A stretch of DNA of 64,000 bases, taken from assembly GCA_964441955.1 (NCBI GenBank), contig CAYTWA010000002.1, positions 9,894 through 73,893 of the forward strand, in the 5' to 3' direction. Under the pieces are notes generated by a model, which was given only the letters and a program-made list of their open reading frames with translations, did no database searches and was not told the origin of the DNA. Shown piece by piece: positions 3,001-21,004 of the stretch. This stretch comes from an uncultured Elusimicrobia bacterium (GTDB taxonomy: Bacteria; Elusimicrobiota; Elusimicrobia; 2-01-FULL-59-12). Positions within the stretch are counted from its first letter, which is position 1, and every line of letters begins with the position of its first letter. A program made the translations under genes and the position numbers.

Positions 3001-6000
3001 ACGAACGAAAATCCTTTGAAACGGCTTCGGACACCCGTAAAACCCAGCTTTCGAAGGAAGTCGATGAGCTTAAAGAGAAGGTCAAATTTCAAAAAGAGCA
3101 ACTCGCTTCCCGCGTCATGGGGCTTGAACGAGAACGCCATCAGATCGAAGACGCGTTACAGGCCAAAATTTTAGAACTCGAGCAAAGCGGCAGTCAGAAA
3201 ACAACCGCGATCAAAACCCTTCAAGAACAGCTCACCAAGGCGCGCGAACGCAGCGAACAGATGGAAAAGCGTCTGTCCACAGTGGAGGCCCACCTGCAGC
3301 GCGCGGAGGGGCAGCTAAAGGCCAAAGAAACGGAACTTCATTCCCTAATAAGCAGCTCGCACAAGGAATTAAACGAGTCCCAGGAGACGTATCAGCGGCG
3401 CATCTTGGAGCTGCAAAACAACAAACTCAAACTGGAGACCGACTTAAAAAGCCTTCAAGAATCGCTGGCGCGCGCCGATGGCTTGCGTGCGTCCCTTGAA
3501 AAAGAAGCCGCACAGCGTGAACGGACATGGCGCGCCGCGGAGGGTGAATGGAAGGGTGCCGCTGAAGCCAAGCAAAAGGAGGCAGGCCTCCAGCAGACGG
3601 CGCTGACGAAACGCATCGATGAATTAGAGAATCAAGTCCGCCAAAAAACGGTGGAACTCCAGACTTTCGAAGCGCGCCTTTCGGTCGCCGAAGACCAGCG
3701 AACGGCTTTTGAGAAAGACGTGCAAGCCGGCCGCAGCCAGATCGTTGCGATGCAAAAACAAATTTTGGATTTAAAGACCGGCCTTCAGGAACGTGAATCG
3801 GAGCTAAAAGAAAACCATCAGTCGCTCCTTTCGCTGCAAAAAGAACGGCAAACGCTATTGGACTCACTTGAGGCCGAGCGCAAAGGTGTTGCCTTGGAAC
3901 GCCAGGCCTGGGAATTCACCGCGGCACAAACCGATCAAGCGCGTCAGAAAGAAAACGCGGCCTTTGAGGACCGGCTGCTCGCGCTCCAGCAGGAACGCGC
4001 CCAGGTGGAACGGACACTTCAAAAACAGGTTACCGATCTTCAGGAAACGCTCACGCTTCGCGTCGCGGACCTTGAAGATGCCAAACAACAACTTCAAACC
4101 ACTCTCCAGGAGCGCCTGGCGTTTGACAAGGCGGTGGGGGTCAGGACGTCCGAGGCCCTCCAGCGGCACGATGAATTGGAAAAGCGCTATTTTGCAGAGC
4201 GCGACAAAGCGCAACTTGCCGAAACCACGCTGGCCGCGCAAGTCTCGGAACTTCAGTCCCTGCAAGCGGAGCTATCGGCCATCCGCGAAGAGCGCCAAAC
4301 GCTTATTTCCCAACTGGCCAGTGAAAGGCAGAAATCGCAGACGGATTTGCGCGCCGCGGCGAATGACCACGTGGAGCGTGCCGAAGCGCTTCAGAAGCGT
4401 ATCCAAAACCTCGAAATTAACCTTGGTGCGGAGCGCAGCCAATTTGAGCAGCGGATGGCCGCCGTGCAAAAAGACCGCGCCGAGAAAGAGGAAACCCTGC
4501 ATCGTCGCCTCTTAGAGCTTCAGGATGTGGCCTCAGGCCGCGCCGCGGAAATCCAGGGGCTTAAACAGAGGCTTCATGAAGCCGAACAAGCCCGTTTTTC
4601 TTTGGAGAAAACAACGGGCGAACAGCTTGGGAAAGCCCAGCAGAGCCAAACCGATCTCGAGAAGCGGTTTTTTGCCGAACGCGGCCGCGCAGAGCAGGCC
4701 GAGAGCCAATTAGCCGCTCAATTGTCTGAAATCAAAGAATTAAAGGAGGCTGTAGCCTCGGCGCGGCAAGACAGAGAGACGCTGCTTAAAACTCTCTCTG
4801 AGCAGCGCGAGAAAGCGATGTCGGATTTAAGCGCCCTCCAAAAGGCGGCCCAGACCTCCGAACAAGAGGCGCGCCGGCAGATGCATGTGCTTGAGAAGGA
4901 GTGGCGTGACCGGCTGAATGCGGCCGCCGCGCAATCCGCGGAGCGGGTTGCCACTTTACAATCCCAAGTGACGGTGCTTGAAAAGGCTCAAGTCGCCGAA
5001 AAGGCCGATTTTGAAAAGCGTTTGGCTCTTTTTGTGGAAGAACGCGCCCGCGCTGAAGAAGCGCTGCAGACCCGATTGATCAGCCTCCAAGAAGGGCTGG
5101 CGCGCCAGCAGACCTTGGCTACCGAATTGACCCAAAAATTAGACGCCTCCGAAAAAACTCGCGACATTCTTGAAAAGCTTTCGCGTCAAACAGGTGAGGA
5201 ATGGAAAGCCGATCGCCAGGCGCTCGCGCAGCAATTAAATGCGCAGCGCGAACAAATCGTGCGGCTTGAAAAACAGCTGTCGGCCCGTGAAGAAAACGTT
5301 CAAGACATCCAACAAGCGCTGGCGCAGGCCCAAAAAGACCGCCAAGCTTTGACCGAGTCGCTACAGCACGCAAAAGTCAGTTTTGATTTGGAACGAACCG
5401 GTCTAGAGTCACATTTTGAACGCTCCAGTGAAACGCTCCGCTTCAAGTTCATGGAAGCCCAAAAGCAGACTGCCGCTCAAGCTTTGATGCTCGAAGAGCA
5501 GCGGGCGCGTCTTATGCAGCTCGAGGAGCGTCTTAAAGACTCCGAACAGCGTCGCTCAATGATGGAAAAAGCAGGGACCCTTCAGTCCACGGAAGCTGAG
5601 AACCGTCGCCTCGATTTGGAAACGCATCTTCGGGCGGAACGTGAGCGGTCGGGTCATATGGAAACTCGCTTGACGGCCCAAGTCTCGGAGCTTAAGGAAC
5701 TTAAAGAAGCTCTCGCCGCTGCCCGGCAGGAACGCGAAAGCGTGCTAGTGACCCTCGCTAGTCAGCGGGACAAAGCCTCTCAGGATCTGGCCGATCAGCA
5801 AAAGGCGCTGCAGACGTCGGAGGCCGATTCCCGTCGACAAATTCAAGCGCTAGAGAAAGAATGGAAAGAGCGCTTAAGCGCAGCGTCCACGCATGCCTCA
5901 GAGCGTATCGACGCACTTCAAGCCCAGGTCGCGCAGCTCGAACAAACATTGTCCCGTGAAAGGCATGATTATGAAGTGCGCTTGGCGGGCTTGGTGGATG

Positions 6001-9000
6001 AGCGTGCGCGAGCCGAAGCAGCGCTTCAAGCCCGACTAAGCCAGATCCAAGATCAGTTGGCGCGCCAGCAGACGCTCGCGCAGGAGATGACGCTCCAAAT
6101 AGCCGCCTCTGAGAAAGAGCGCGAAAGTTTGGAAAAAGCGTCGCGCCAAAACGGGTCCAATTGGAAAGCGCAGCAGGCCGCTATTCAGACGCAACTGGAC
6201 GCCTACCGCGAACAGATTCGGGGGCTTGAAACGGAGCTTGCGGCCCGCCAAACAGATTTAAAGGATGTCCATGCGTCCTTAGCCGCCGCGCAAGCGGACC
6301 GGCAAGCGTTAATCGAGTCGCTCCAAACGCACAAGCAAGGGTTTAGTCTCGAGCGAAGCGCTCTCGAATCGCTCATGGAAAAGACCGTCACCGATTCTAC
6401 TCACGCCATGGACGTCTTACGTGCAAGGCTGGTAGAGGCGGAGAAGCAGGTGGCCGTTCACCTGAATGCGCTAGATGACCAGCGCTCACGCGTCGTGCAG
6501 TTGGAAGCGCGGCTTAAGGAATCTGAACAACGCCGTGTCTCTATAGAACAATTGGGAGCGACCCAGTTGGCCGAAGCCGAAAAATGCCGCCGCGATCTTG
6601 AAACGCGACTGAGCGCGGAACGCGACCGCGCCGGCCTCATGGAGACGAAACACGCAACTCAAGTGTCGGAGTTGAAAGAATTGCACAACGCGCTCGCCTC
6701 CGCGCGCCAGGAGCGCGAAACGCTTCTTGAAACATTGTCGGCTCAGCGTGAAAAAGCGACTGCCGACTTGATGGCTCAGCAAAAAATGCTTCAGACTGCG
6801 GAGTCCGAAGCGCGTCGGCAGACGCAGGCCCTTGAAAAAGAATGGCGGGATCGTTTAGCGGCGGCCTCCGCTCAATCCACGGATCGGATTACGGCGCTTC
6901 AAGCGCAGGTCACGCAACTTGAGCAAACATTGACCCAAGAGAGACACCAGGTCGAAAAACGGCTTGCGGCTCTGGTGGAGGAACGATATCAAGCCGAAGC
7001 AGCCCTCCAGGACCGCTTAACGGCCTTAAGCGAAAATTTAGCGCGTCAGCAAACGATGGCTCAAGAAATGGCGCTTAAACTAGCGGCCTCCGAGAAGGAG
7101 CGAGAAAGTCAGGAAAAAGCCGCCCGCATGGCGGGGTCCGATTGGAAAACACAACAAACCGCATTCCAAACGCAATTGGAAGGTCAACGCGACCACGTTC
7201 GGCAATTGGAAAAACAGCTGACGTCGCGTGAACACGATTTAAAAGAAGTTCAAGCCGCGTTGTCGGCGGTTCAAAAAGACCGTCAAATTCTAACGGAAAA
7301 GCTCGAATCGCAAAGACAAGGATTTGAGCTAGAACGGGCGGCCTTGGAAGTGAAGTTGGCGGAAGGACAAAAAGCCGCCAGCCAAGCCATCGCCAAACTC
7401 GAATCGCAGTGGCGCCAAAGGCTCGATACGGCCGCGGAGGAATCCACCCAAACGGTGGAAGCGCTGCGCCAACGAATCGTGGAAATTGAGCAGAAATGGG
7501 GCGAGCGGAATGCGGCGCTGGAAAAAGATTGGCGCGAGCGCTTAAGCGCCTCGGGCGTCCAATACACCGAACGCCTTGCCGGTCTTCGCTCGCAAATGGC
7601 TTCCTTAGAGGCGGCGCACCGAGACCAAACAGCCTCCTTAGAACAGGCGCTGGCAGCTCAGAAAGCCGATTTTGAAAAACGCATCACCGTTTTCCAGCAA
7701 GAGCGCACTAAAGAAGAATCGATTCTTCGGGAGCGTTTAATGTCGCTGCAAGACAAGGCCGGCCATAAAGAGGCGGACTTGTCCGCGCTGGCGAAGGATC
7801 TCGAAGGAGAGCTTGCAGCCGCCCGCCAGGAACGGGATGCATTGGCCAGTGAGCTTACGCTTCAGAGGGAAGAATCCGTCAAAGCCCTTCGTGCGGCCGA
7901 GGGCACCGCCAAAACTCTCGAAAGCCAGTGGCGCTCTCGTTTGGACGCCTTGGACAAATCGGCTCAAGAACGGGTCGCGCGCGTCACGACCGAAGCGGCT
8001 GAACGGCTGGAGGCCTTTGAAGCGCGCGTGGAAGAATTAGAAAAGCGTCTTGCCTCCGAGCGCAGTGATTTTCAAAAACGTTTAGAAGCCCAAACCGCTC
8101 AAGCCGAACGTGTCCAAGCCCCCCTGCAGCAGCGGTTGATCGAATTGGAGCGCGCCGTGGCCGAGCGCTCGGGCTCTCTTAAGGCCGTCCAAGAAAAGCT
8201 GTCGCGCTTAGAAGAGGCCAAGGCGCGCCTTGAAAAGACCGCGGCGACCGACGCCGCTCAGGCCGCCCGGACCTACCGGCAGATGGAAGAGCGTTTGGCC
8301 GCCGAAGGCGGTCGTGCGGAAGCGTTGGTCGGCCAGATTCAGGCGCATCAGCTGCAAATCAAGGAATTAGACGCCGTTTTATCCGCGGTGCGTGAAGAGC
8401 GTCAAGCCTTAAGTGAATCGCTCGAAGCGCAGCGCCAGAAATTTATGGCTGATATGAAGGACCAAGGGCAATCCCTCAGCCAGCGTGAGCGCATGGTCGC
8501 TCAGCAAATCCATGAATTGGAGAAGGAATACACTCAGCGCTTGAGCCAGCAGGAAAAAGATTTCAAATCGCAAAGCGAAGCGCTTCATGAACGGGCCCGT
8601 GCGCTGGAAGCGGACTTGGCCCGCCGGGAATCGGCCGCGCAAGCGATCGAAAAACAATTGCGCCGGGAATACGAAGCGCGCCTCCATGAAGAACGGGAAA
8701 AAGCGCGCAAACTTCAGACCGACTTGGCCGCGCTTAGTTCTTCCGTGAGCGACTTGGAAAGCCGCTGTGCCACTCTTCAGGGCCAGAAGGAAACCAACGA
8801 CGACCATTTCGAGCAGGAACGATTTCGATTTGCCGATCAAATAAAAGGTCTCGAAACGCGCCTTAAGGAACAAAAAGCGGAATCCAAACGGACAGTAGAG
8901 GCGTTGGAACTTGAACTTCGTTCCCAATCCGCGGGTGTTTCAAAGGAATCGGTCGACCGTCTGGAAAATGTCCAGCGCCGGGTGCGCGAGTTGGAGCAGC

Positions 9001-10028
9001 TTATGGACCGAAAGGATACTGAAATCGGCGTGCTTCGGGAACAAATGGACCATTTAGAAAAAGCCTCGGCTCATCGTGAGAAGGAAATGGTTCGTACTCA
9101 TGCGAAGGAATTAGAAGAAATGCAAAGCCGCTTCCTAGGCAAGATGAAAGAGATCCGCGCGGAGTCCGAGGAAGCCTTACGCCGCGTGCAAAATGAGTAT
9201 TTATCGCAAGAGTCTGTGGCAAGCCCGGATTTGCGTGGAATGGAAGAACGCCGAGTTTTAGAAGCAAAGCTTCGGGAGGCTCAAGCGGAACTGGAACAAG
9301 CGAAAGTCCGCGAGCCCGCACGCCTAGCGGATGCCGGAGTGTCCAAATCCTTGATGGAAGAATGGGTGTTTGGTTTTGCCCATCAAGTCCGCAACCCCCT
9401 AGGCATTATCCGAAGTGTTGCCGAATCGTTGAAATGCCAGGTGGCGCTCAGCCGCGGTGGTGGTGAGGCCATCGACGCCATTTTGAAGGCGGTCGATGGG
9501 TTAAATGGACGCCTTAAAGAATTTATCGAATTCTCCAAACCGGTTAAACCCTTCTGCCAAGCCTTGGATGTACGAACCACGGTGGAAAAAGCCTCTTCCG
9601 GGCTGCGCGAGCGAATGAAGCGGCAGCGGGTGGACTTCAAAATGGACATTCCACACAATTGTCCGACTCTGCCTTTGGACCCCGATCACATGCAAACGAT
9701 TTTGGTCAATTTGATGAGCAATGCCTTGGATGCCATGCCCGATGGCGGTAAACTGCGCGTGGAAGCGCGTTACGCGCCCTCAGGCGGAAAGCTGGAGCTG
9801 CGCGTTCAAGACACAGGCCGGGGAATTCCCAAAGAACATATGAAGGAAGTGGGTCGTCCGTTTTTCTCCACGAAACCGGGTGCCGTCGGTTTGGGGCTTG
9901 CTCTCGTCAAACGCCTGCTTCGCGCTTATCACGGCGACGTGGTGGTCGAAAGCAAACCTAACCAAGGCACGACGGTCCTATGCCGGCTCCAGGTTCTTGA
10001 TAAAGGAGAAACCGCATGGGCCGCGTAA
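1..10028 (+). CDS. Giant coiled-coil sensor histidine kinase (5' partial; >3,340 aa). About 3,100 aa of heptad-rich, SMC/myosin-tail-like coiled coil followed by HisKA (H-box FAHQVRNPL) and HATPase_c (N-box LVNLMSNALDA, G1 DTGRGIP, G2 GLGLALV)
   Basis: ORF 102..10028 continues in frame without a stop to base 3 (translated by hand upstream of the first ATG), so it is 5'-truncated. The C-terminal ~230 aa show canonical histidine-kinase motifs. The rest is E/Q/R/K/L/A-rich repeats with no TM segment. Confidence 0.85.
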   Translation, partial: GALQSVHSLQDLNARLKGEIQDYLHREKALNERMIRLQQELNDSYSRLDQHTSIDRDREAAAREALRQEIILEQNAKWQTEIDALRQSVQNWNEVRRQKETELRMIKEALLQKEAEVFALQKEKISSEEKAHRDLVEAISKARSGVQMAIDEVVRSKDHDIQNLKNELAQGPIELDRRLQQIEQDYRRKEQNLLHQFRERQQALELDWTQREKELWEQVSRSRQTLEAELKKQWENRTQELERSFDQRRSFLENQTQQKEHLMDQRLSARENELLSVWAAKESALVQDWARKEKALAEQFQKALDEERQSAMAEIARVKKESETWRAAQEETWHSREIEFKKAQSETEDMLRDSFRHREEDLLAKHQDALGKSQKQISDLLARASEKDTQARVAMEKLAMVVKERDALSERLESTTRDSQQRLMMVEQQLKTRERELQQLTQRLASEVEVREAHIQNLTRKNTAQESDVKVLQEKIERAEIDRDASQKKAVELETDFMARRQSLEQAYQTEMSSLRERLTVLSQTTSQKEQTYQRRVAELETDLLERVSQAQTLSDQLSVARTDFQELLQTSTTRDDRLASIERELANALEEVRSLTHHLKRQEEVRDELQSKNEALQGQLREETQRFEERLAHAGHEADMMRGRLEQRVVELEGLFRQKSTDAQTLQIRLNEAMQAFKTLESVSSERQTELSARLQALEQASNAEKEAFDVQLQGLRQKDLALQQSLEARIRELETDIARRAAVQADLQGQVQSLQETRQDISERSAAREAQLLDEVHDLKNKIQVQKEQLTSRVLGLERERHQTEEALHAKALELEQRLGQKSTTLKTVQDELSKAHETTEQLGKRLTTVEAHLQRAEGQLKAKETELHALINASHKQAAETQETYQRRLLDLQNQKLKLETDLKGVQDLLARTESARVAIEKDAALLETQRLSQVQKLEERLVAQERAHEERFAHADQAAQTMRGQLEKRILDVEGQLRQKMTDLQTLESRLKEAVDERKSFETASDTRKTQLSKEVDELKEKVKFQKEQLASRVMGLERERHQIEDALQAKILELEQSGSQKTTAIKTLQEQLTKARERSEQMEKRLSTVEAHLQRAEGQLKAKETELHSLISSSHKELNESQETYQRRILELQNNKLKLETDLKSLQESLARADGLRASLEKEAAQRERTWRAAEGEWKGAAEAKQKEAGLQQTALTKRIDELENQVRQKTVELQTFEARLSVAEDQRTAFEKDVQAGRSQIVAMQKQILDLKTGLQERESELKENHQSLLSLQKERQTLLDSLEAERKGVALERQAWEFTAAQTDQARQKENAAFEDRLLALQQERAQVERTLQKQVTDLQETLTLRVADLEDAKQQLQTTLQERLAFDKAVGVRTSEALQRHDELEKRYFAERDKAQLAETTLAAQVSELQSLQAELSAIREERQTLISQLASERQKSQTDLRAAANDHVERAEALQKRIQNLEINLGAERSQFEQRMAAVQKDRAEKEETLHRRLLELQDVASGRAAEIQGLKQRLHEAEQARFSLEKTTGEQLGKAQQSQTDLEKRFFAERGRAEQAESQLAAQLSEIKELKEAVASARQDRETLLKTLSEQREKAMSDLSALQKAAQTSEQEARRQMHVLEKEWRDRLNAAAAQSAERVATLQSQVTVLEKAQVAEKADFEKRLALFVEERARAEEALQTRLISLQEGLARQQTLATELTQKLDASEKTRDILEKLSRQTGEEWKADRQALAQQLNAQREQIVRLEKQLSAREENVQDIQQALAQAQKDRQALTESLQHAKVSFDLERTGLESHFERSSETLRFKFMEAQKQTAAQALMLEEQRARLMQLEERLKDSEQRRSMMEKAGTLQSTEAENRRLDLETHLRAERERSGHMETRLTAQVSELKELKEALAAARQERESVLVTLASQRDKASQDLADQQKALQTSEADSRRQIQALEKEWKERLSAASTHASERIDALQAQVAQLEQTLSRERHDYEVRLAGLVDERARAEAALQARLSQIQDQLARQQTLAQEMTLQIAASEKERESLEKASRQNGSNWKAQQAAIQTQLDAYREQIRGLETELAARQTDLKDVHASLAAAQADRQALIESLQTHKQGFSLERSALESLMEKTVTDSTHAMDVLRARLVEAEKQVAVHLNALDDQRSRVVQLEARLKESEQRRVSIEQLGATQLAEAEKCRRDLETRLSAERDRAGLMETKHATQVSELKELHNALASARQERETLLETLSAQREKATADLMAQQKMLQTAESEARRQTQALEKEWRDRLAAASAQSTDRITALQAQVTQLEQTLTQERHQVEKRLAALVEERYQAEAALQDRLTALSENLARQQTMAQEMALKLAASEKERESQEKAARMAGSDWKTQQTAFQTQLEGQRDHVRQLEKQLTSREHDLKEVQAALSAVQKDRQILTEKLESQRQGFELERAALEVKLAEGQKAASQAIAKLESQWRQRLDTAAEESTQTVEALRQRIVEIEQKWGERNAALEKDWRERLSASGVQYTERLAGLRSQMASLEAAHRDQTASLEQALAAQKADFEKRITVFQQERTKEESILRERLMSLQDKAGHKEADLSALAKDLEGELAAARQERDALASELTLQREESVKALRAAEGTAKTLESQWRSRLDALDKSAQERVARVTTEAAERLEAFEARVEELEKRLASERSDFQKRLEAQTAQAERVQAPLQQRLIELERAVAERSGSLKAVQEKLSRLEEAKARLEKTAATDAAQAARTYRQMEERLAAEGGRAEALVGQIQAHQLQIKELDAVLSAVREERQALSESLEAQRQKFMADMKDQGQSLSQRERMVAQQIHELEKEYTQRLSQQEKDFKSQSEALHERARALEADLARRESAAQAIEKQLRREYEARLHEEREKARKLQTDLAALSSSVSDLESRCATLQGQKETNDDHFEQERFRFADQIKGLETRLKEQKAESKRTVEALELELRSQSAGVSKESVDRLENVQRRVRELEQLMDRKDTEIGVLREQMDHLEKASAHREKEMVRTHAKELEEMQSRFLGKMKEIRAESEEALRRVQNEYLSQESVASPDLRGMEERRVLEAKLREAQAELEQAKVREPARLADAGVSKSLMEEWVFGFAHQVRNPLGIIRSVAESLKCQVALSRGGGEAIDAILKAVDGLNGRLKEFIEFSKPVKPFCQALDVRTTVEKASSGLRERMKRQRVDFKMDIPHNCPTLPLDPDHMQTILVNLMSNALDAMPDGGKLRVEARYAPSGGKLELRVQDTGRGIPKEHMKEVGRPFFSTKPGAVGLGLALVKRLLRAYHGDVVVESKPNQGTTVLCRLQVLDKGETAWAA
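1880..3500 (+). repeat. Second intragenic repeat pair (~410-nt conserved block QKEQL.SRV.GLERERHQ.E.AL.AK.LELEQ...TVEAHLQRAEGQLKAKETELH..I..SHK...E.QETYQRR.L.LQN.KLKLETDLK) at ~2350-2760 and ~3080-3490. A weaker ERF..HA..MRG.LE match lies at ~1880 and ~2860.
   Basis: Near-identical peptide blocks read in the translation of the giant ORF. Confidence 0.55.
4640..7380 (+). repeat. Three tandem intragenic repeats of ~960-980 nt (~325 aa). Conserved blocks LTAQVSELKELKEAL...ASQRDKAS.DL..QQK.LQTSE...RRQ.QALEKEW..RL.AAS...ER..ALQAQV.QLEQTL..ER
   Basis: Protein-level self-similarity read directly from the translation. Copies start near nt 4670, 5630 and 6610, with ~60-70% aa identity. Confidence 0.7.
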
Positions 10029-11182
10029 TGGTGGTGGACGATGAGGCCGACATGCGCATGGCGCTGCGACTCTTTCTTCAAAATAGCGGCCACGAAGTCG
10101 AAGAAGCGGAAAACGGCGAAGCCGCTTTGGCGAACCTTTCAAACGGTGCTTCTTACGATTTAGTTCTCATGGACATGCGCATGCCCGGGATGGACGGGCT
10201 CCAAACGCTGACGAAGCTGCGCGAAACGAAAAAAGATTTACCGGTGATCATGGTGACCGGCTACGGCAGCGTTGACCAAACAGCCGAAGTGCTCGAAAAA
10301 GGCGCCAACGGCTACATCACCAAGCCTTTCCAACACCAGGAATTGCAGGATGCCATGAGCCGAGTGGGCCTGGTATCGCAAGGAAGCGATGAAGCGAGTA
10401 AGCGTGTCAGCACAGACGGGACTAACTCGCCTAATCGCTCACTTGCTCACTCGCGCCGTTGGATAACGCTTGGCTCCGTCGCTCTTGCGATCATTGGTTT
10501 TAGCTGGCAGCGCGGATGGCTGACCAATGACGATTTTAAGCTGGCCTATTCCAACCCCGTCGACATGACCTGGAATGCAGGAAAACTCTGGGTGGGGGAT
10601 TGGTTTACACAATCCATTTATATTCACGACATCGCCAAATCGGGCGCACCCATTGTTAAAACCTATTATTTGCCCGATGTGCATGTGACTGGCGTGGCGG
10701 TGGCGGGGGATCGCCTCTACACCTCGGACTCCTGGGATAAGAAAATCCGCCGGCATAAAATGGACGAATACTTAACGATTGAGGCTGTCCTTCCCGCCCC
10801 GGGTCAAAATCCGACGAGCCTCTTTTTTGATGGGAAATATCTGTGGTCGATGGACTCGAAGGCCGCCCGAATTTATCAGCATCGCCTGGATGAAAAACTG
10901 ACTGTTGTGGCCGATTATAAAGCCCCGGGATCGGCGCCGGTCGGGTTTTTCAAAGATGAAAAGTTTGCCTGGGTGTCCGACAGTCAAACCCGCCGGCTTT
11001 ATAAGCTGCGTCTGGATGACCAATTAACGACACTCGAGTCCTATACGATTTCCGATCTGGAAGCTCGCCGCGAACCCCTGTCTTGTTTCCGCTGGATTAA
11101 CGGCAACCTTTGGTTTGCCCGCGACCGGCTCGGAACAATGTTCAAGCGAACCCCTCGCAGCCTAAAGCTAGCCGCGAAGTAA
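10016..11182 (+). CDS. Response regulator with N-terminal REC domain (D-D-...-K motifs: VVDDEADM, LVLMDMRMPGMDG, ITKPF), one predicted TM helix (WITLGSVALAIIGFSW) and a C-terminal ~230-aa domain of four to five ~42-aa repeats (..SDSWDKKIRRHKMD / ..MDSKAARIYQHRLD / ..SDSQTRRLYKLRLD) resembling beta-propeller blades
   Basis: Start ATG overlaps the stop of the giant kinase by 13 nt (translational coupling). The CheY-like receiver motifs are clear. The repeat periodicity was read from the sequence. Confidence 0.8.
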   Translation: MGRVMVVDDEADMRMALRLFLQNSGHEVEEAENGEAALANLSNGASYDLVLMDMRMPGMDGLQTLTKLRETKKDLPVIMVTGYGSVDQTAEVLEKGANGYITKPFQHQELQDAMSRVGLVSQGSDEASKRVSTDGTNSPNRSLAHSRRWITLGSVALAIIGFSWQRGWLTNDDFKLAYSNPVDMTWNAGKLWVGDWFTQSIYIHDIAKSGAPIVKTYYLPDVHVTGVAVAGDRLYTSDSWDKKIRRHKMDEYLTIEAVLPAPGQNPTSLFFDGKYLWSMDSKAARIYQHRLDEKLTVVADYKAPGSAPVGFFKDEKFAWVSDSQTRRLYKLRLDDQLTTLESYTISDLEARREPLSCFRWINGNLWFARDRLGTMFKRTPRSLKLAAK

Positions 11183-11267: not shown

Positions 11268-14200
11268 ATGCGCGCTGTTTGCAATATAGGAATTATTTTT
11301 TGCTTGTTTGTTCAAGCCATCGATGGCGCACCTGGCGACTTCCGGTCGCCGGTCCGGCGTGATCCAACGGCTCTCCCCGCTTGGACCGTTCAAGCTCTGG
11401 CCTTAGAAAGCATCGCGGGCTTTTTTGGGCGTCTATTACCCCGAACGCCGCGTTACGTCCTATTAAAAGGACTTAGGCCAAACCCAGACCTGTTGCCCGT
11501 CATCGAAGGCCCGGGTCGCTTACACCCCGAGGCGCTAACAAAAGCGTTTGAAGAATATGCGAGGAATGTAGAGGAGGTCGGGTCGGACGCTTCGAATGCG
11601 TTTCCTCAAACCGCGTCCGCGCCGTCGAGCGCATTTTACGGGGTCATGCATTTCTTGAATAATCCACAACCCTTCAAAGACGAACAAGCCCGCTTTTTAG
11701 CGGCGCTTCACACGATCATCCAAGCCGACATGGGTGGCCATCCAAATTTCGACGGCATTTGGAAGGACGTAAAGTCTCATCTTATCGCGGTGCCCCCGGA
11801 AGGCTTGCACGTGACGCTGGCCGCACTGGCTAACGGGAAGAGCGATTTTCGCTCCATGAAATACTGGGTTTACCGTTACCAAATTGGGCAGTGGCTAAAT
11901 CGCCTGGGACCCTTTTTCCCGGAAAGCCATTGGCATTATGCCGGGGATATAAAGTTTTTTGATGCCTCCATCCCAGCTGTAGCCGCTGTCTTACGCCCGA
12001 ATTCGCCCGAGGATTTATTTACATTTCGTTCATTGGGAACAGCTATCGCTGGAAAATTATCACTCCGGTCCCATCTTGTCCATGTGACTCTATATTATGT
12101 GGACTATTCTTTACCCACGCCGAGCCATGCGAAGGAGTGGAGTGAGCAGCAGTTAAGACTTTGGATCAACGCGGCGGTTTTGAAATGCTCTGGCGACACA
12201 GTTAGCCCTGCCGCATTGGCCATCGATTCCATCACGCCAACAGCCTCCACAGCCCTAAATCAACTTCATCCTGACAAGCCAATCAAACTGAAAGATCGTC
12301 AAACCTTCGAAGATGCCGTTGCTAAAGGGAAAGCCGCCCTCGCTCGCGCGCTCATGCCTGGCGATTACCCGCAGGCGCTAGTGGCCGTGCTGGGGCTTTT
12401 TTACCAATACCATTTAAGCGACTTAAACGCCTTATTTATCGCCGTGGCGGAGGGGAAAATACCCATTTGGCGTATCGAACGACTTTTGTCAAGCCGTAAA
12501 ATGCTCGGTGTTGAGCTCCGGGAATGGAAGCCGTTGACAGGCACGGCGACAGCGAAAATTCGGGTGCGTCACGACCACCCGGGGCTATCGCTGGCCATTT
12601 CGCATACGATAGACCAGTCTCACGGTGTCGTGTCCCGTATGGGTAACGGAAAACAATTTGAAATTGTAATCGATCAAATTCAGGACGAGAATGAACTTCG
12701 GCAGCTAATGGCAGCGTTGAGCCAAATCCCGGACGTCGGCGTCCGGTTTTTCTGGCAATGGCCGATCTTGCACCGGATCCGAAATGCTCTCCATGGGACG
12801 ACAAGCGTTCGATTGACTGCGCTGCTCCCCACCCACCAAAAAGAAGCAGGGCAAATGAGTCAAAAAACTCGGTTATTACAGGCTCTGCTGGCGTTGGATC
12901 CAAATGCCAATTTAACGCATTTAGAGGTGGAGCGTCGCCCGCCTCTGGGGACTCAGCTTGAAATGAGCATCGATATTCGATCAGCCGTTGCGCCCTTTCT
13001 CGAAGAAACCTTGAACCGGGCTCTTGGCATCAAGGCGGTCCAATCCGTGCAAACGAATCACGATCGGCGCGGCCTGTCATCTCAATTGTCAGATTGGATC
13101 TGGTCCGATGGCTATGCGCTAATTCTTTTTAGCAGTTTGGCTTTGGCATTGCTGAGCAGCTTATGGGTTTTCGCCGCGTTTGGCCCAGACGGGATATTCG
13201 CGTATGGGAGTTTGTTGTTAAGCCCAATTTTGGCGCACCTCTACGTTTATGCGAATTTGCTGCAGCTAAAAATTTATCCTTCGGACAATTTGTCTCCTGG
13301 CCGCCTGGAAGATGCCCGGTTACCAGCCGTATGGCGGCAATGGGGATGGTCCGATCATGCCGCCTTATCCGTATCTTTCTTTTGTCTTCCATGGGTGGGT
13401 TACCTCGTAGCCGCCATTCCTTTTTTTCTCCACTTTCCAACCTGGCCCGGCGCCGCGATGGCGGTTGGACTACTAAGTTCTCTGGCTTTTCCTTTATGGA
13501 TTGGAGACTCGCTCCATCGAAGCGCCGTTTGGGCCATGTATTATGAAAAAGATCAAATCTTGGGGCGACTTAAGCGGTCAAGCCCGATTCGTGTCGGCGA
13601 CTTGTTGATCTTGGACGCCTCCCATCCCCTTAAACCCTCCGTCGTAGTGCTCCTGCCGCTCGATGGAGTACGCGTGCAGGACGATGACTCAAACAAGTTT
13701 TACGAGATCCGGGTTTGCTTTATGCCGAACAACTTCGTCCCATGGGAGCTTAAAGTTTACGAGGGTAAGAAGTGTATTCAAAGAATTGATTTGGAATTGG
13801 ATTACGAAAAGGAGCAGCTCTTGGTTCGGGGTTGGTTTAAGCTCGAAGACGATAAGGATTTCTCCAGCATGATTTTAAAAGTCCTTCATGAAAAAATGCC
13901 GGAGGGTTTTCGACTTTCGGGACCTTGGGAATACAGGCGAAAGGGCGCTTCCAACCCATCATCATCGTCATGGTTGGAGTCCTGGTGGCGTGCTCGTCCA
14001 TGGATGGGTCCCGAAGGGCTTATTTTTATCGACGAAAGTGCGCGGTTGGTACGAATAGACCATTCAAGAGATTTGACCGAGGAAGATATTTGCCGGATCG
14101 AAACCACCTTCTTCAGAGGGTACTTTCAAGAGGTGGGCGACGAGGCACCGCGATCCGTTAAACTATTGACGAGCTTGTGGTTGCGGCTTGGGCTGGTGGA

Positions 14201-14774
14201 CGAAGTGTCTTTGACGGATTACTTATTTAGTCTCGCCTCAACAAAACCCTCGAACGCAAATAAAGACACGTTTATCCGATTTATGAACGGCCAACACTTC
14301 ATCACGGGATTCAGACAAGGAAAACGCGACGTCGATCCCGCCACATTGACGTCGGACCCATCGTTGTTAAAAGAATTGGCCGCCCTCCAACCGGTCCAAC
14401 GTTATTGGCTCAGAACGCTCCTCGAGCGCGACGGTGTTGACCCGCGTGTAGCCGTTGGTTGGTTAACGCCGTCCATTTTTTTACATATGAATGAGCACAT
14501 TGAAATTATTCAGAAGGATGGTCGTTACCTTTTGAGATTATTGGGATTTATTTCGGGGGACGAGGGGAAATTCGCTCAAGCACTCTATGCGGGACATATC
14601 GAAGACAAGCCTCTCAACCTAAGAAAAGTGTCCGAGCGAAGGCGCTTCTTTCAACGTGTGAAACCAGATCAAATATCCACAGAAGCCCTTGCTTTATGGG
14701 CCGACGTCCTTCGTTGGATAAACCAATACGGATTTAAACCCGTTTCCTACTGGAAAACGACCACGGCCGCCTAA
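11268..14774 (+). CDS. Orphan 1,168-aa protein with a possible N-terminal signal/anchor (IGIIFCLFVQAI), a central cluster of 4-5 TM helices (aa ~610-760) and a ~400-aa C-terminal soluble region. The gene is markedly lower in GC (~45%) than its flanks.
   Basis: Long uninterrupted ORF. The GC drop is visible by eye (e.g. 12000-12120, 13700-13900). I recognise no domain signatures. Confidence 0.6.
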   Translation: MRAVCNIGIIFCLFVQAIDGAPGDFRSPVRRDPTALPAWTVQALALESIAGFFGRLLPRTPRYVLLKGLRPNPDLLPVIEGPGRLHPEALTKAFEEYARNVEEVGSDASNAFPQTASAPSSAFYGVMHFLNNPQPFKDEQARFLAALHTIIQADMGGHPNFDGIWKDVKSHLIAVPPEGLHVTLAALANGKSDFRSMKYWVYRYQIGQWLNRLGPFFPESHWHYAGDIKFFDASIPAVAAVLRPNSPEDLFTFRSLGTAIAGKLSLRSHLVHVTLYYVDYSLPTPSHAKEWSEQQLRLWINAAVLKCSGDTVSPAALAIDSITPTASTALNQLHPDKPIKLKDRQTFEDAVAKGKAALARALMPGDYPQALVAVLGLFYQYHLSDLNALFIAVAEGKIPIWRIERLLSSRKMLGVELREWKPLTGTATAKIRVRHDHPGLSLAISHTIDQSHGVVSRMGNGKQFEIVIDQIQDENELRQLMAALSQIPDVGVRFFWQWPILHRIRNALHGTTSVRLTALLPTHQKEAGQMSQKTRLLQALLALDPNANLTHLEVERRPPLGTQLEMSIDIRSAVAPFLEETLNRALGIKAVQSVQTNHDRRGLSSQLSDWIWSDGYALILFSSLALALLSSLWVFAAFGPDGIFAYGSLLLSPILAHLYVYANLLQLKIYPSDNLSPGRLEDARLPAVWRQWGWSDHAALSVSFFCLPWVGYLVAAIPFFLHFPTWPGAAMAVGLLSSLAFPLWIGDSLHRSAVWAMYYEKDQILGRLKRSSPIRVGDLLILDASHPLKPSVVVLLPLDGVRVQDDDSNKFYEIRVCFMPNNFVPWELKVYEGKKCIQRIDLELDYEKEQLLVRGWFKLEDDKDFSSMILKVLHEKMPEGFRLSGPWEYRRKGASNPSSSSWLESWWRARPWMGPEGLIFIDESARLVRIDHSRDLTEEDICRIETTFFRGYFQEVGDEAPRSVKLLTSLWLRLGLVDEVSLTDYLFSLASTKPSNANKDTFIRFMNGQHFITGFRQGKRDVDPATLTSDPSLLKELAALQPVQRYWLRTLLERDGVDPRVAVGWLTPSIFLHMNEHIEIIQKDGRYLLRLLGFISGDEGKFAQALYAGHIEDKPLNLRKVSERRRFFQRVKPDQISTEALALWADVLRWINQYGFKPVSYWKTTTAA

Positions 14775-14849: not shown

Positions 14850-15641
14850 TTAGGAAGGATTCGAAATTTCGGCGTCGGATAACGACGGGAAGGTGAGGGT
14901 GACGGTGGTTCCTATTTTGGGGATGCTTTGGAACTGGGTTTGCGCGTGGTGCTGTTCGATGATGCGTGCGGCGAAGAAAAGCCCGAGGCCCACCCCGCCT
15001 GGTTTTGTGGTTTTAAAAAGGGTTTTCCCGGGCTTTGGGAGTTTAAGGCCCGGCCCGGTATCCCTAATGAGAATTTGGACGGACCCCTTATTCGTCACCT
15101 GCGTCGACAACGTCAGTGTTCCGCCGGGAGTCATGGCCTCGATGGCGTTGACCGCGTAATTAAGGACCGCCTGTTCTAAGAGCTCCGCTTGAAAGAAAAC
15201 GTCCGGGAGTTTGGCTTCTTGGTGTTTTTCAAAGTGCAGACCTTTACGTTTGCAAAGTTCCTCCGCGTAGTCGGCCGCCGCGTTGACCACCGGGTTGATG
15301 GATCCGCAGTTCATCGGCGGTTGTTCCCCTTTGGCATAAAGCAGTAAATGGCTGACGATGCGCGAAAGCTTTCCGGCGCTTCGTTCAATCAAATCCAACG
15401 GCTGACGCTGCTCCGGGAGCAGTCCTTTTTGCCCCCGCAGTAATTCGGTGGTCGTTTGAATGGTTTGAAGCGGGGAGCGGAATTGGTGAACGAAGCCAGC
15501 CACCATCCGCCCGAGTGTCTTCCATTTTTCAACTTCAAGAGCAGCGGCAGAGGGAGTGAGAGTCAAGGTAGATTTCTTTTTAAAAAAAATTCCTTGACAC
15601 CCTCTCCCTCTGCCCTTGCTCTTCACGGTGTGATTGCCCAT
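14850..15641 (-). CDS. Soluble, sensorless histidine kinase: HisKA (FVHQFRSPL) + HATPase_c (N-box AVNAIEAMTPGG, G1 IRDTGPGL, G2 GGVGLGLFFA). The N-terminus contains an in-frame palindromic element.
   Basis: Motifs are present in the translation. The start ATG at 15639-15641 overlaps the stop of the upstream cNMP-patatin gene by 1 nt. Confidence 0.8.
   Translation of the reverse strand: MGNHTVKSKGRGRGCQGIFFKKKSTLTLTPSAAALEVEKWKTLGRMVAGFVHQFRSPLQTIQTTTELLRGQKGLLPEQRQPLDLIERSAGKLSRIVSHLLLYAKGEQPPMNCGSINPVVNAAADYAEELCKRKGLHFEKHQEAKLPDVFFQAELLEQAVLNYAVNAIEAMTPGGTLTLSTQVTNKGSVQILIRDTGPGLKLPKPGKTLFKTTKPGGVGLGLFFAARIIEQHHAQTQFQSIPKIGTTVTLTFPSLSDAEISNPS
15547..15613. repeat. Palindromic element copy A: arms GCAGAGGGAGTGAGAGTCAAGG / CCTTGACACCCTCTCCCTCTGC, core TTTCTTTTTAAAAAAAA. 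Lies in-frame within the 5' end of the small HK gene on the - strand (encodes KSKGRGRGCQGIFFKKKSTLTLTPSAAA).
   Basis: 22-bp imperfect inverted repeat. No stop codons in the HK frame. Confidence 0.75.
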
Positions 15642-17641
15642 TAGTACGCCCGCAGCGAGATGCCCAGCGGTACTTTGCAGTGGTCCGAAAAAAACGGCAG
15701 CAGGCTCTTGATTTTAGGCAGCGCTTCTTCCGCGGCGACGATGCCGGACTTTAAAATGTCATCCGAGCGGTGAAACTCCGTCCAGTTGTAGTCGCGTAAA
15801 TCCGGGGCAATTACGATGTGGGCAATTTCGACGCGCGCCTGGGCGATTTCGTATTGCATGGTGTAGAGCATCTTGAAAAACACTTCGGCCATATTCGGCG
15901 CCTCGGGTACGAGCGGCAGTATTTTCCGGCGCCCGGGAATTTTGCGAAGGGATGGCTTGGCCGTGAGATTGACTGAAATCAAAATGTCTGCGCCCATGTT
16001 GGACACAATGGAGGTAGGAACCGGGTTGACGAGCCCGCCATCCACCAAATAACGATCCCCGTATTTAAAGGGTTGGAAAAGAATCGGCAAGGATGTCGAC
16101 GCGCGCACGGCGTCGGCCACGCGGCCTTCGCGTAAAACCACCTCCTGTCCCGTGCGAATGTCGGTCGCTACGGTGGCAAAGGGGATGCGGAGTTGGTCGA
16201 ATTCAACGGTGCCTAAAACGCTGCGCAAAAATCCCGAAAGCGTCTGGCCGGCCATAAACCCCGAGTGGGGAAATGTGAGATCCCCAAACATGTTTTTTAA
16301 AAGCCATTTTTTCGTAATGCTGCGTGAGATGTCTTCAATTTTTGAGGGGGAATGGCCGGCGCAAAAAAAAGATCCTAGGAGTGCGCCCATGGACGTCCCG
16401 GCAACCACATCGATGGGAATGCCTTCCCGTTCAAAAATTTTGAGAATCCCCACGAGCGTATAACCAAACGCGGCCCCCGACCCCATGGCCAGGCCGACTC
16501 GCAGTTTGCCGAGTGCGCGCGCCACGCGTTCCAAGGCTTCAATGGCGGAGCCGCCCTGGTCGTGGGTTAAGTAGGGGGTCCCGGTGGCACGAAAAGGCTG
16601 ATGAAACGCTTCGCTCCAGGGGACGCGAAAATTGGCTTTAAAAGCGTTGCGGGACGAGGGATGGTGCAGATAAACCGTCGTAAACGGCACGGTTTCGTTA
16701 TCGGCCAACATACGCAGACGAGGCAAAGAAGTGTCCGCCAGCTCAATGGCTTGGTCCCATACGATGCCTAACGCCCGGTCGGATTCGCGCATCAAGATTG
16801 GAATCAAATCGTCTTCTTCCGTGGGGCTAACCAAGAGGGCAAAATCGTAATGGTCCTTAAGCAAACCCAAGAGCGAGGGAACAACGCCCAGCAAATGCTC
16901 TTTGACCAATTTGGGGTGAAGCGACAGCACTTCAAGTCCGCTGGGATGAACGGTGATCACCTGCCTAAGCGCGTGGATGTCGAGGAAATCTTGCTCACGA
17001 AGCATCGCATCCATCGACATCGGAGGGTTTAAGCCCAACGAGCGCGCCATATCCCCGCTGCGTGCGGTCAAGTCGACCAAAATCACTTTGCGGCGCGTTT
17101 GCTCGACGAGGGCCATCGCCAAATTGACGGTGGACAGAATCAGCGCCTCGTGCGGAAGTGCGGGAAACACCATGATGCGCTGCGGTTCTTTCGGTTTGTC
17201 GTGCGGCGGATGAAAGGATACCGCCAGGCGTTTGGACAGGGCGCGCGAAAGGTGAATGCCCACCAGCGGATGCGCTTCCAAAATTTGATCGAACTCGGAT
17301 TTTCCCAACGTCAATAGTTCGCAGGCGGTATCGGCCACCGCGCTAAAAGGATAGGGCTCTCCCGTTAAAAGCGAAAGTTCTCCCACGGCATCGCCTCGCC
17401 CTAAATACGCCACGGTGTTTTCTCCTTCCTTGCCAAACTGCGACGTGATACGGATGCGTCCAGACTTGATTAGAAAGAGCGCTTGGCCGGGGTCTCCTTC
17501 GCGCAAGATGGTGGCGCTGCGGTCGATTGTCAAGGACTGAAGCTTGCCGACGAGTTCCATGAGCACATCGTCCCCTAGAGGACTAAAGAGGGGGTTGCGT
17601 TTTAGAAAATACAATCCATCGCTGCGGTTCTGGCTATCCAC
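15641..17641 (-). CDS. Cyclic-nucleotide-binding domain (..GELSLLTGEPYPFSAVA) fused to a patatin-like phospholipase (GTSMG nucleophile elbow, DGG catalytic Asp motif YLVDGGLVNPVP). Bacterial NTE-like lipase.
   Basis: cNMP-binding and patatin GxSxG/DGG signatures read in the translation. Confidence 0.85.
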   Translation of the reverse strand: MDSQNRSDGLYFLKRNPLFSPLGDDVLMELVGKLQSLTIDRSATILREGDPGQALFLIKSGRIRITSQFGKEGENTVAYLGRGDAVGELSLLTGEPYPFSAVADTACELLTLGKSEFDQILEAHPLVGIHLSRALSKRLAVSFHPPHDKPKEPQRIMVFPALPHEALILSTVNLAMALVEQTRRKVILVDLTARSGDMARSLGLNPPMSMDAMLREQDFLDIHALRQVITVHPSGLEVLSLHPKLVKEHLLGVVPSLLGLLKDHYDFALLVSPTEEDDLIPILMRESDRALGIVWDQAIELADTSLPRLRMLADNETVPFTTVYLHHPSSRNAFKANFRVPWSEAFHQPFRATGTPYLTHDQGGSAIEALERVARALGKLRVGLAMGSGAAFGYTLVGILKIFEREGIPIDVVAGTSMGALLGSFFCAGHSPSKIEDISRSITKKWLLKNMFGDLTFPHSGFMAGQTLSGFLRSVLGTVEFDQLRIPFATVATDIRTGQEVVLREGRVADAVRASTSLPILFQPFKYGDRYLVDGGLVNPVPTSIVSNMGADILISVNLTAKPSLRKIPGRRKILPLVPEAPNMAEVFFKMLYTMQYEIAQARVEIAHIVIAPDLRDYNWTEFHRSDDILKSGIVAAEEALPKIKSLLPFFSDHCKVPLGISLRAY

Positions 17642-17666
17642 GGGGGGCCTCGCTATAATCCGCCGG

Positions 17667-20997: not shown

Positions 20998-21004
20998 AAC
21001 GAAT

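Follow-up and report, generated by a model that had tools for sequence, protein, structure and literature searches.

The window, a stretch of 64,000 nucleotides from contig CAYTWA010000002.1 of an uncultured Elusimicrobia bacterium (assembly GCA_964441955.1), contains two overlapping genes on the forward strand, one for a histidine kinase and one for a response regulator with a predicted transmembrane (TM) helix and a beta-propeller. The features are listed below.

1-10028, forward strand: partner histidine kinase gene with its 5' end beyond the window edge (open frame, kinase domains at the C-terminus)
9375-9539, forward strand: HisKA (DHp) phospho-acceptor domain of the kinase with H-box FAHQVRNPL (Pfam)
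9678-9992, forward strand: HATPase_c catalytic domain of the kinase (Pfam)
10003-10008, forward strand: Shine-Dalgarno AAGGAG for the response regulator, within the 3' end of the kinase gene (direct sequence reading)
10016-11182, forward strand: response regulator gene (388 aa), encoding a receiver (REC), a linker, a TM helix and a five-bladed propeller
10025-10354, forward strand: REC, residues 4-113 (Pfam Response_reg, PF00072)
10172-10174, forward strand: codon for the phospho-acceptor D53 of the response regulator
10364-10438, forward strand: flexible cytoplasmic linker, residues 117-141 (AlphaFold2 pLDDT, alignment)
10439-10510, forward strand: predicted TM helix, residues 142-165 (hydrophobicity, AlphaFold2, comparison with relatives)
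10460-10507, forward strand: uncharged core of the predicted TM helix, W149-W164 (16 residues)
10529-11173, forward strand: five-bladed beta-propeller, residues 172-386, predicted periplasmic (AlphaFold2, Foldseek, profile search), with blades at residues about 176-218, 219-260, 261-302, 303-344 and 345-388

The first 13 nt of the response regulator gene lie within the end of the upstream kinase gene (stop at 10028), an overlap that is consistent with translational coupling of the two genes, and the AAGGAG sequence stands 7 nt upstream of the response regulator ORF. REC was recovered at residues 4-113 with E=6.1e-34 (117 bits against a Pfam cut-off of 30.2), which bears out the earlier assignment of this 388-aa ORF, made in a sequence-only reading of the window, to the response regulators. 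The residues D8, D9, D53, T81 and K103 are all present and at least 90% conserved among 36 homologues, and Y100 occupies the aromatic switch position; both the receiver and its partner kinase look functional. No DNA-binding family was detected in the response regulator with Pfam and NCBIfam, and its cytoplasmic part consists of REC alone. The combination of REC, TM helix and propeller was also identified in 41 close homologues, at 33 genome loci and in no fewer than 84 of the 187 proteins examined from the family, mostly from Elusimicrobiota, and because of this recurrence it does not represent a chance arrangement.

According to its sequence, the partner kinase is a giant soluble coiled coil whose C-terminus carries the kinase core. 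The window encodes at least 3341 aa of it and lacks about 30 aa; from base 3 on, the frame stays open and reaches ATG102 without an in-frame stop, and the first window residues, SLQDLNARLKGEIQD, match about residues 28-42 of the N-terminus of the kinase at a related locus, L035. The amino acids E, Q, K, R, L and A account for about 66% of the residues, as is typical of coiled coils, and internal repeats of about 242 aa (two copies) and about 320 aa (three copies) were recognized. The window kinase has no TM-like segment (the maximum Kyte-Doolittle value in a 19-residue window, KD19, is 0.93), and no sensor domain was found by Pfam in the scanned parts. In the translation of positions 8400-10025, HATPase_c was matched at residues 427-531 (E=9.6e-25) and HisKA at residues 326-380 (E=2.4e-5), the latter with 24.8 bits, just below the cut-off of 26.9 bits. 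Orthologous kinases are 217 to 4512 aa long, with the closest relative's at 4512 aa. Those that were checked have no TM-like segment and contain 50-70% coiled-coil-type residues, except for three short kinases (217-231 aa) that consist of the core only. A kinase gene is located immediately upstream in all 22 Elusimicrobiota genome loci with an intact REC and in none of the pseudo-REC or REC-less loci. Both the giant sensor-less coiled-coil kinase and the operon that is conserved in relatives had been missed in the earlier reading.

Between REC and the TM helix, the family alignment is poor and the linker varies in length from 17 to 97 aa (median 35.5); in the window copy, residues 128-141 of the linker were modelled with a pLDDT below 50. 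The hydrophobic segment that follows was modelled by AlphaFold2 as a helix of 24 residues at 142-165. It had previously been described as a strongly hydrophobic segment of 20 aa. The segment is present, but in the window copy only the 16 residues W149-W164 are uncharged (mean Kyte-Doolittle value 1.68) and KD19 is only 0.97, which is under the usual threshold of 1.6 and the lowest among 36 aligned homologues, most others having values of 1.5-2.6. In 143 family proteins, the segment has a median length of 19 aa and a mean Kyte-Doolittle value of 2.14, and stops a median of 4 aa ahead of the propeller profile. A membrane-spanning length is thus clearly indicated for the family and marginal for the window copy.

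These modest values for the window copy, along with a simple Hessa-scale sum that is slightly positive (+0.67), would suit a protein that is cytoplasmic in its entirety, with the hydrophobic stretch as a buried or peripheral helix or hinge in an ordinary regulator composed of REC and a protein-binding domain. We consider such a protein extremely unlikely. At the same position, the homologues retain hydrophobicity and not sequence, whereas the reverse would be expected of a packed helix; the window helix lacks amphipathic character (Eisenberg muH 0.12, <H> 0.75), and a re-entrant hairpin is impossible for a helix of such length. The amphipathic helix and the membrane-embedded hinge that had been raised as alternatives were rejected on account of the low muH and the conservation of hydrophobicity without conservation of sequence. 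In addition, the N-side flank of the segment contains 3.7 K+R and the C-side flank 2.2 (138 relatives; Wilcoxon p=5e-14), a positive-inside bias that places the N-terminus inside, with 3 against 2 in the window copy itself. Minimal relatives, such as P0160 and P0153, consist of an N-terminal signal anchor and a propeller and nothing else, while L032 encodes a signal peptide, a propeller and a transglutaminase core, and most multi-repeat relatives carry signal or lipoprotein peptides at their N-termini. We infer that the response regulator is very probably bitopic with an N-in/C-out orientation and the propeller on the periplasmic side of the inner membrane, and the conserved segment, the charge bias and the signal-bearing relatives support the earlier suggestion of a REC in the cytoplasm and a propeller across the membrane, joined by a single helix.

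The propeller-type repeats of about 42 aa, for which a number of four to five had been given, were counted as five. They are marked by LWVGD191, LYTSD234, LWSMD276, AWVSD318 and LWFAR365, with a spacing of 43, 42, 42 and 47 aa. In agreement with the repeat pattern, AlphaFold2 predicted a five-bladed beta-propeller with 21 strands (domain-only pLDDT 94.0 and pTM 0.90; full-length pLDDT 90.4), in which the N-terminal strand 172-175 is predicted to close blade 5. The family searches were less informative, in that no Pfam or NCBIfam family reached its threshold in the propeller of the window protein and 18 family members, and the matches that point to a propeller were weak, with 18.6-21.3 bits against 26.3 for SGL and sub-threshold NHL matches in 5 of the 18 members. 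To judge from these profiles, the domain amounts to a subfamily not described before. Propellers of the YWTD (LDL-receptor class B), NHL and SGL types share with it the blade pattern hydrophobic-W-x-x-D ... I-Y ... L-D, but have six blades instead of five, and the matches to them stay below gathering scores.

The residues Y178, N180, Q199, H223, K274 and R332 are conserved outside the repeat pattern of the propeller and could equally mark the active site of an enzyme. Such an enzyme, glutaminyl-cyclase-like or another NHL/SGL-type hydrolase or lyase, would be anchored in the inner membrane, act in the periplasm and be tuned by the receiver. Five-bladed glutaminyl cyclases of plants and bacteria are exported proteins, and were the best full-length Foldseek matches to the propeller, which they resemble in blade number and overall fold (3mbr, 3nok, 2iwa, 2faw and 3nol; query-normalised TM-scores 0.73-0.79, E down to 5e-11). 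The weak matches to SGL, NHL and Vgb_lyase and the invariance of the polar residues N180, Q199, H223, K274 and R332 point in the same direction. However, the propeller and the cyclases are only 12-14% identical in sequence, and the high TM-scores are explained by the equal blade number alone. Furthermore, Glu_cyclase_2 (PF05096) was matched by neither the window protein nor any of the 18 family members, and a profile search of PDB sequences returned no cyclase even at E<=10, whereas it did find non-enzymatic propellers, namely the YWTD propellers of LRP6 (E=2.3e-4). An enzymatic function is accordingly rated as quite unlikely.

In some relatives, the TM-propeller module occurs without REC; it then stands alone or is preceded by a pseudo-receiver or a fused coiled coil. 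Since it is found in such contexts, and since the linker between REC and the TM helix is disordered and variable, the module appears to behave as an autonomous periplasmic module or anchor and not as a classical "output domain." The protein encoded at L006 consists of a kinase-type N-terminal motif, 640 aa of coiled coil, the TM helix and the propeller, and L019 combines a coiled coil with the TM helix and the propeller. By eye, P0078 appears to contain a coiled coil, a degenerate DHp-like stretch, a pseudo-REC, the TM helix and the propeller. These "Rosetta-stone" fusions suggest that the module is coupled to a coiled coil, and we put the chance that the coiled coil is coupled to the envelope at about even.

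Genes for envelope proteins are located upstream in the related loci. One encodes a PorV/PorQ-like outer-membrane barrel with a periplasmic coiled coil and a LysM tail. The barrels scored 26-81 bits with PorV_fam against the NCBIfam cut-off of 90 (E down to 1e-22), and the full profile was covered in three of the four barrels scanned. No other neighbour is as constant as this outer-membrane protein gene. A secreted protein with a CHU_C/FlgD_ig tail (T9SS-CTD-like) is encoded upstream in about 20 loci, kinase-less pseudo-REC loci among them; this tail passes the cut-off for Pfam CHU_C (30.5 against 27) and fails that for TIGR04131 (26.4 against 35). The arrangement of barrel and secreted protein was also identified in one member of the clade to which the window belongs. 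Because the kinase gene runs past the left edge, the barrel and cargo genes would lie outside the window, and for its source they are extrapolated from the relatives.

The best overall explanation, which we hold with moderate confidence, is that a bitopic regulator connects the coiled-coil kinase in the cytoplasm with a module of the envelope. The kinase core would dock on REC and phosphorylate D53. Given that the REC-TM linker is floppy, a rigid piston movement or rotation is an unlikely way for the signal to cross the bilayer, and a disordered linker of 17-97 aa argues against any rigid conformational coupling from REC across the membrane. Instead, phospho-dependent REC-REC or REC-kinase association could alter how the TM-propeller units oligomerise or cluster, and REC-kinase association could also fix the long cytoplasmic coiled coil to a set site on the envelope. 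The propeller would serve as the envelope-binding end of the regulator, with the PorV/PorQ-like barrel and its LysM tail, peptidoglycan or the T9SS-CTD-like secreted protein as likely partners; that its periplasmic partner is indeed a product of the upstream operon or peptidoglycan is put forward tentatively. [quoted passage not shown] That phosphorylation controls the extracytoplasmic propeller, as the sequence-only reading had it, should be taken as a proposal and in the qualified form given here.

In a bolder version, which we find unlikely, the coiled-coil kinase would be several hundred nanometres long and serve as a cytoskeletal ruler or scaffold, and phosphotransfer to the membrane-spanning receiver would directly govern a periplasmic propeller that engages the PorV-like channel and peptidoglycan. 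With a rise of about 0.15 nm per residue, on which the estimate is based, the length of the kinase coiled coil would be comparable to that of these very small cells. It is similarly improbable that the signal runs in the opposite direction, with the periplasmic propeller as the sensor for the sensor-less kinase, such that binding changes the association of the TM helices or RECs and gates the gain or loss of phosphate at REC. The input could then be the state of the PorV-like barrel or of its cargo, and the regulator might act as a ligand-controlled phosphate sink or an allosteric modulator of the kinase, with the output via the kinase coiled coil or another regulator. Sensing from the outside would fit a kinase with no TM-like segment and no sensor domain in the scanned parts, as well as a regulator that alone is predicted to reach the periplasm, and an outer-membrane protein gene as the most constant neighbour. 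The layout also parallels that of the bitopic sensors ToxR/CadC and FecR, and an additional soluble REC protein, encoded at L013 and L006, could be the true output. On the other hand, no second regulator adjoins the kinase-regulator pair in the window or in L034, the floppy and variable linker is a poor transmitter of conformational change in either direction, and the existence of minimal relatives without any cytoplasmic domain implies that the propeller has a periplasmic task of its own.

We also compared the coupling of kinase and envelope by a bitopic regulator to known systems; the literature search gave no match. In textbook two-component systems, the sensor kinase is located in the membrane, the regulator is cytoplasmic and the outputs under receiver control are taken to be cytoplasmic as well. 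The pair in the window resembles these systems in its full receiver with the Asp, acidic, Thr and Lys residues, in the overlapping kinase gene directly upstream and in the HATPase_c and near-threshold HisKA matches of that kinase. It differs in that a membrane helix separates REC from the second domain, for which an extracytoplasmic location is predicted, and in that the layout is reversed, with a soluble kinase and a regulator that is predicted to reach the periplasm. If phosphorylation acts across the membrane, the family would represent a new extracytoplasmic output class for response regulators, a bacterial form of inside-out signalling and the first Asp-phosphorylated receiver that controls an extracytoplasmic domain. 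If the pair is a regulated tether, a giant cytoplasmic coiled coil would be linked to the envelope in a phylum that has received little study. In both cases, an undescribed five-bladed propeller domain, predicted to be periplasmic, has been defined, and the natural fusion variants make the hypothesis testable.

One-component regulators of the ToxR/CadC type and anti-sigma factors such as FecR/RseA have an N-in signalling domain, a single TM helix and a periplasmic domain, and FecR-type proteins work with an outer-membrane protein encoded nearby. The bitopic N-in plan is common to these proteins and the window regulator, which, however, has a phosphorylatable receiver and its own kinase instead of a winged-helix or anti-sigma domain; no sequence relationship between them was found. 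A precedent for a REC protein with a membrane-anchored, uncharacterised output region is provided by archaeal response regulators with a "membrane-anchored MetOD3" output domain, which form a very small family of undescribed structure (Galperin et al., 2018, PMC5847659).

The PorX/PorY pair of the T9SS is similar in that PorX is a response regulator without a DNA-binding domain that contacts an envelope-spanning machine, where it binds PorL at its cytoplasmic domain (PMC5445135), and in that both a PorV/PorQ-like barrel and a protein ending in a T9SS-like domain are encoded at the related loci. PorX, however, lies entirely in the cytoplasm and has a PglZ-type output, while PorY is membrane-bound (PMC5445135), whereas the window regulator itself is predicted to span the membrane, and the NCBIfam matches of the barrel and tail are below the curated cut-offs. 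The PorX model NF052313 matched residues 3-108, the REC part only, with 70.6 bits against a cut-off of 300, and an identity as a PorX-type regulator was rejected. The T9SS has been described as limited to the Bacteroidetes or FCB group (PMC5445135, PMC12398890). If the receiver does control the propeller across the membrane, a continuous linkage from the cytoplasm to the outer membrane would regulate surface-protein sorting outside the Bacteroidota; in either case, the related loci contain a PorV-like/CTD-like operon outside the lineages with known T9SS parts.

The response regulator is encoded by an open reading frame of 388 aa at positions 10016-11182 on the forward strand, preceded by a ribosome-binding site (AAGGAG) 7 nt upstream, and, starting at its ATG, it overlaps by 13 nt with the preceding gene, which encodes the partner kinase. 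No convincing terminator or promoter was identified around the gene. An identical regulator was also found on a 13.9-kb ENA contig, the end of which falls inside the kinase. Residues 4-113 represent a canonical receiver domain, REC (Pfam Response_reg, E = 6.1e-34), and every one of the many NCBIfam matches was confined to the receiver part. The active site residues D8, D9, D53, T81 and K103 are all found here, with a conservation of 90% or more in an alignment of 36 homologs, and the receiver therefore looks phosphorylatable, as judged from its sequence. This is a genuine REC protein, and it has a cognate kinase. The AlphaFold2 model, built on the alignment of 36 homologs (pLDDT 90.4), contains the following parts:

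Residues 1-116, REC domain
Residues 128-141, disordered stretch (pLDDT <50)
Residues 142-165, single helix
Residues 172-386, 21 beta-strands

The repeats that the sequence-only reading had attributed to beta-propeller blades are real and five in number (LWVGD191, LYTSD234, LWSMD276, AWVSD318, LWFAR365), and they form a five-bladed propeller in the predicted structure. Structure prediction of the C-terminal domain alone, which had been proposed as a check, also gave a confident propeller (pLDDT 94.0, pTM 0.90). No Pfam or NCBIfam family reached the threshold for residues 165-388, for which the sub-threshold matches were to SGL, NHL, Vgb_lyase, PWWP and LolA only, and a single-sequence search of PDB gave nothing significant. 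A profile of the domain matched the YWTD propellers of LRP6 among the PDB sequences (E = 2.3e-4). The best full-length structural matches were to five-bladed glutaminyl cyclases from bacteria and plants (3mbr, 3nok, 2iwa, 2faw, 3nol), with query-normalized TM-scores of 0.73-0.79, which would favor the minor alternative that the propeller is a periplasmic enzyme. However, the identity to these proteins is only 12-14% and no glutaminyl cyclase was recovered in the sequence searches with the propeller, and we consider this alternative improbable. Membership of the cyclase family was rejected at the sequence level and, because of the lack of cyclases in these searches, the resemblance is taken to reflect a common blade number rather than a common enzymology. 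The invariant residues of the propeller are mostly the W, D and Y of the repeat pattern; Y178, N180, Q199, H223, K274 and R332 are invariant outside this pattern and may constitute a putative binding or active site.

A single hydrophobic segment precedes the propeller, as the earlier reading had noted, but it consists of 16 uncharged residues (W149-W164, mean KD 1.68) rather than 20. Its best 19-residue window has a KD of only 0.97, a modest value that is borderline if taken alone and that would favor the stretch not being a membrane span. Against this possibility, which we regard as very remote, stands the pattern across the relatives. At the same position in 35 close homologs, KD19 is mostly 1.5-2.6 and the sequence is not conserved; hydrophobicity kept without sequence conservation is consistent with a helix that is exposed to lipid rather than packed. 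When the propeller profile was run against 1.84 billion representatives, the number of matching proteins was 4308 at E <= 1e-3 and 233 at E <= 1e-30. Of 157 family proteins examined that have a complete propeller, 141-143 contain a hydrophobic segment (median length 19 aa, mean KD 2.14); the distance from its end to the propeller profile is 4 residues (median), regardless of the N-terminal part. The 15 residues before the segment contain on average 3.7 K and R and the flank that follows it 2.2 (Wilcoxon p = 5e-14 for 138 relatives), and this excess on the N-terminal side is the positive-inside signature of an N-in/C-out topology. Some minimal members (P0160, P0153, P0051) consist of an N-terminal signal anchor and a propeller and nothing else, a relative in Clostridia has a cleavable-looking signal peptide followed by the propeller and a transglutaminase core, and most multi-repeat relatives start with signal or lipoprotein peptides. 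The segment, the charge bias and these signal-anchor and secreted forms argue that the regulator very probably adopts an N-in/C-out topology with a predicted periplasmic propeller, and the placement of the propeller beyond the membrane in the sequence-only reading is thereby upheld as likely. The membrane-embedded hinge that it had offered as an alternative was rejected, as was an amphipathic helix, since the segment is not amphipathic (Eisenberg muH 0.12, <H> 0.75).

The partner kinase gene ends at position 10028 on the forward strand and encodes a HATPase_c domain (E = 1e-24); HisKA also matches, at a score slightly under the Pfam threshold (24.8 bits versus 26.9, E = 2.4e-5). Its start is listed at ATG102, yet the frame stays open back to base 3 at the window edge, and the first residues in the window match residues ~28-42 of the kinase N-terminus in the related locus L035; the window edge therefore truncates the gene, which lacks only ~30 codons. 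The protein, a giant coiled-coil histidine kinase, spans at least 3341 aa within the window, where it contains no TM-like segment (maximum KD19 0.93), and no sensor domain was identified in the parts scanned (first 533 and last 542 aa). The residues E, Q, K, R, L and A account for ~66% of the sequence, which includes internal repeats of ~242 aa in two copies (residues ~628-1170) and ~320 aa in three copies (~1500-2450) at 41-67% identity. These were seen at the protein level only, with no repeats in the kinase gene at the DNA level. In the closest relative, in which the propeller region of the regulator is 79% identical, the kinase is 4512 aa long, and the kinase orthologs range from 217 to 4512 aa. 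A coiled coil rises ~0.15 nm per residue, at which the coiled coil of the kinase would be comparable in length to the cell.

The propeller family is essentially restricted to Elusimicrobiota, with the addition of one member in Firestonebacteria and a few in unclassified MAGs. The window also belongs to Elusimicrobiota: its MurC is identical to an NCBI protein encoded on a 540-kb contig, and the named neighbors all fall within this phylum. Each of the 22 genome loci in which REC is intact has the kinase directly upstream of the regulator, and it is absent from every locus with a pseudo-REC or no REC. The natural variants are:

L026, L027, L028 and L030 (about 9480-10640 in each), degenerate pseudo-receiver that has lost the acidic pair as well as Asp, Thr and Lys, before the TM-propeller, without kinase
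L006, kinase-type N-terminal motif and ~640 aa coiled coil fused directly to the TM-propeller
L019, coiled coil fused directly to the TM-propeller
Class of ~690 aa (for example P0078), and P0080, a single chain in which a coiled coil, a DHp-like stretch that is degenerate and a pseudo-receiver precede the TM-propeller, as judged by eye

The pseudo-receiver loci and P0078 and P0080 look like two-component pairs that have become "dead" or fused in nature. The existence of such fusions speaks for the coiled coil acting together with the TM-propeller as a single physical unit. In the version in the window, the contact between kinase and receiver would stand in for the covalent link of the fusions.

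Two further genes are located upstream of the coiled-coil gene(s) in about 20 loci, including the pseudo-REC loci without kinase, in which the barrel gene abuts the regulator gene. One encodes a secreted protein of 640-750 aa with fn3 and a T9SS-CTD-like C-terminal CHU_C/FlgD_ig domain (Pfam CHU_C, 30.5 bits versus a cut-off of 27). The other encodes an outer-membrane barrel of 450-500 aa that matches the PorV/PorQ family model and has a C-terminal LysM domain, preceded in at least two barrels by a coiled-coil-like stretch. Of four barrels scanned, three cover the model over its full length; the lowest E value is 1e-22, and the scores of 26-81 bits are below the cut-off of 90. The conserved upstream operon was located in Elusimicrobiota at:

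L017, 432-4011
L035, 340-7545
L002, 339-4743
L037, 436-5425

At these four loci, the operon contains several small secreted paralogs with a common N-terminal motif, "(D)ATITITPVANVSL", and no family match, along with a large protein that carries fn3 and a T9SS-CTD-like (CHU_C/FlgD_ig) tail, and a PorV/PorQ-like barrel ending in LysM. Searching for homologs of the kinase N-terminus yielded one match, which led to L037. A frameshift-ridden contig from the same clade as the window encodes, with the gene order of the other relatives, an fn3/FlgD_ig protein, a TraF_2-type barrel, a kinase region of ~14.8 kb and the regulator, followed, as in the window, by the small kinase, patatin and HisRS genes. 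The window begins inside the kinase, and the barrel and secreted-protein genes thus fall outside it; scans of metagenome contigs, based on DNA patterns and proteins, recovered no copy of the DNA upstream of its start. Such T9SS-like sorting parts are unexpected outside Bacteroidota and the FCB group.

On the 3' side of the regulator gene, the window contains, among others, these genes:

11268-14774, forward strand, ORF of 1168 aa directly downstream of the regulator, matching no Pfam family, several hydrophobic segments mid-protein
14850-15641, reverse strand, small soluble HisKA/HATPase kinase
15641-17641, reverse strand, cNMP-binding patatin-like phospholipase
18958-20997, forward strand, CHASE2 adenylate/guanylate cyclase
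36847-40197, forward strand, ORF of 1116 aa without Pfam match at E <= 1e-5

In L034, the closest relative locus, a Fic gene and a small ORF take the place of the 1168-aa ORF, after which the flanking synteny resumes; the gene is therefore a lineage-specific insertion and was rejected as part of the system. The cyclic-nucleotide signaling cluster at 14850-21694 flanks the HisRS gene and is conserved in L034 and L039. In L023, a type IV pilin-like gene (10715-11173, reverse strand; N-terminal GFTLLELLVV motif) is located immediately downstream of the regulator.

The domains, the kinase-regulator synteny and the variants are established observations, and with middling confidence we read the regulator as an anchor that acts from the inside out. 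The bitopic protein would expose its propeller to the periplasm as a binding module for an envelope partner, for which the barrel-LysM protein of the operon, peptidoglycan or cargo are candidates, and its cytoplasmic REC would be the site at which the coiled-coil kinase docks under the control of phosphorylation. The linker between REC and the TM helix is disordered and 17-97 aa long in the family, and for any effect across the membrane, phospho-dependent association or clustering is therefore a more likely route than a rigid piston. In the main competing reading, sensing runs from the outside in, and the regulator would provide the sensor that the kinase lacks in the parts scanned. We find this rather unlikely: the forms with nothing but a signal anchor show that the propeller fulfills a role in the periplasm by itself, and this shifts the balance to the anchor.

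Bitopic proteins such as ToxR/CadC and the FecR-type recall the layout of the regulator, but they have no domain in common with it. Full-text searches of the literature gave nothing relevant on membrane-bound response regulators or REC-TM-propeller proteins, and nothing on giant coiled-coil kinases in Elusimicrobia. The sole precedent found for a membrane-anchored response regulator output is the uncharacterized archaeal MetOD3 (PMC5847659). A functional parallel is provided by PorX/PorY of the T9SS, in which a regulator is in contact with an envelope machine, although PorX is cytoplasmic (PMC5445135) whereas the regulator described here is predicted to span the membrane.
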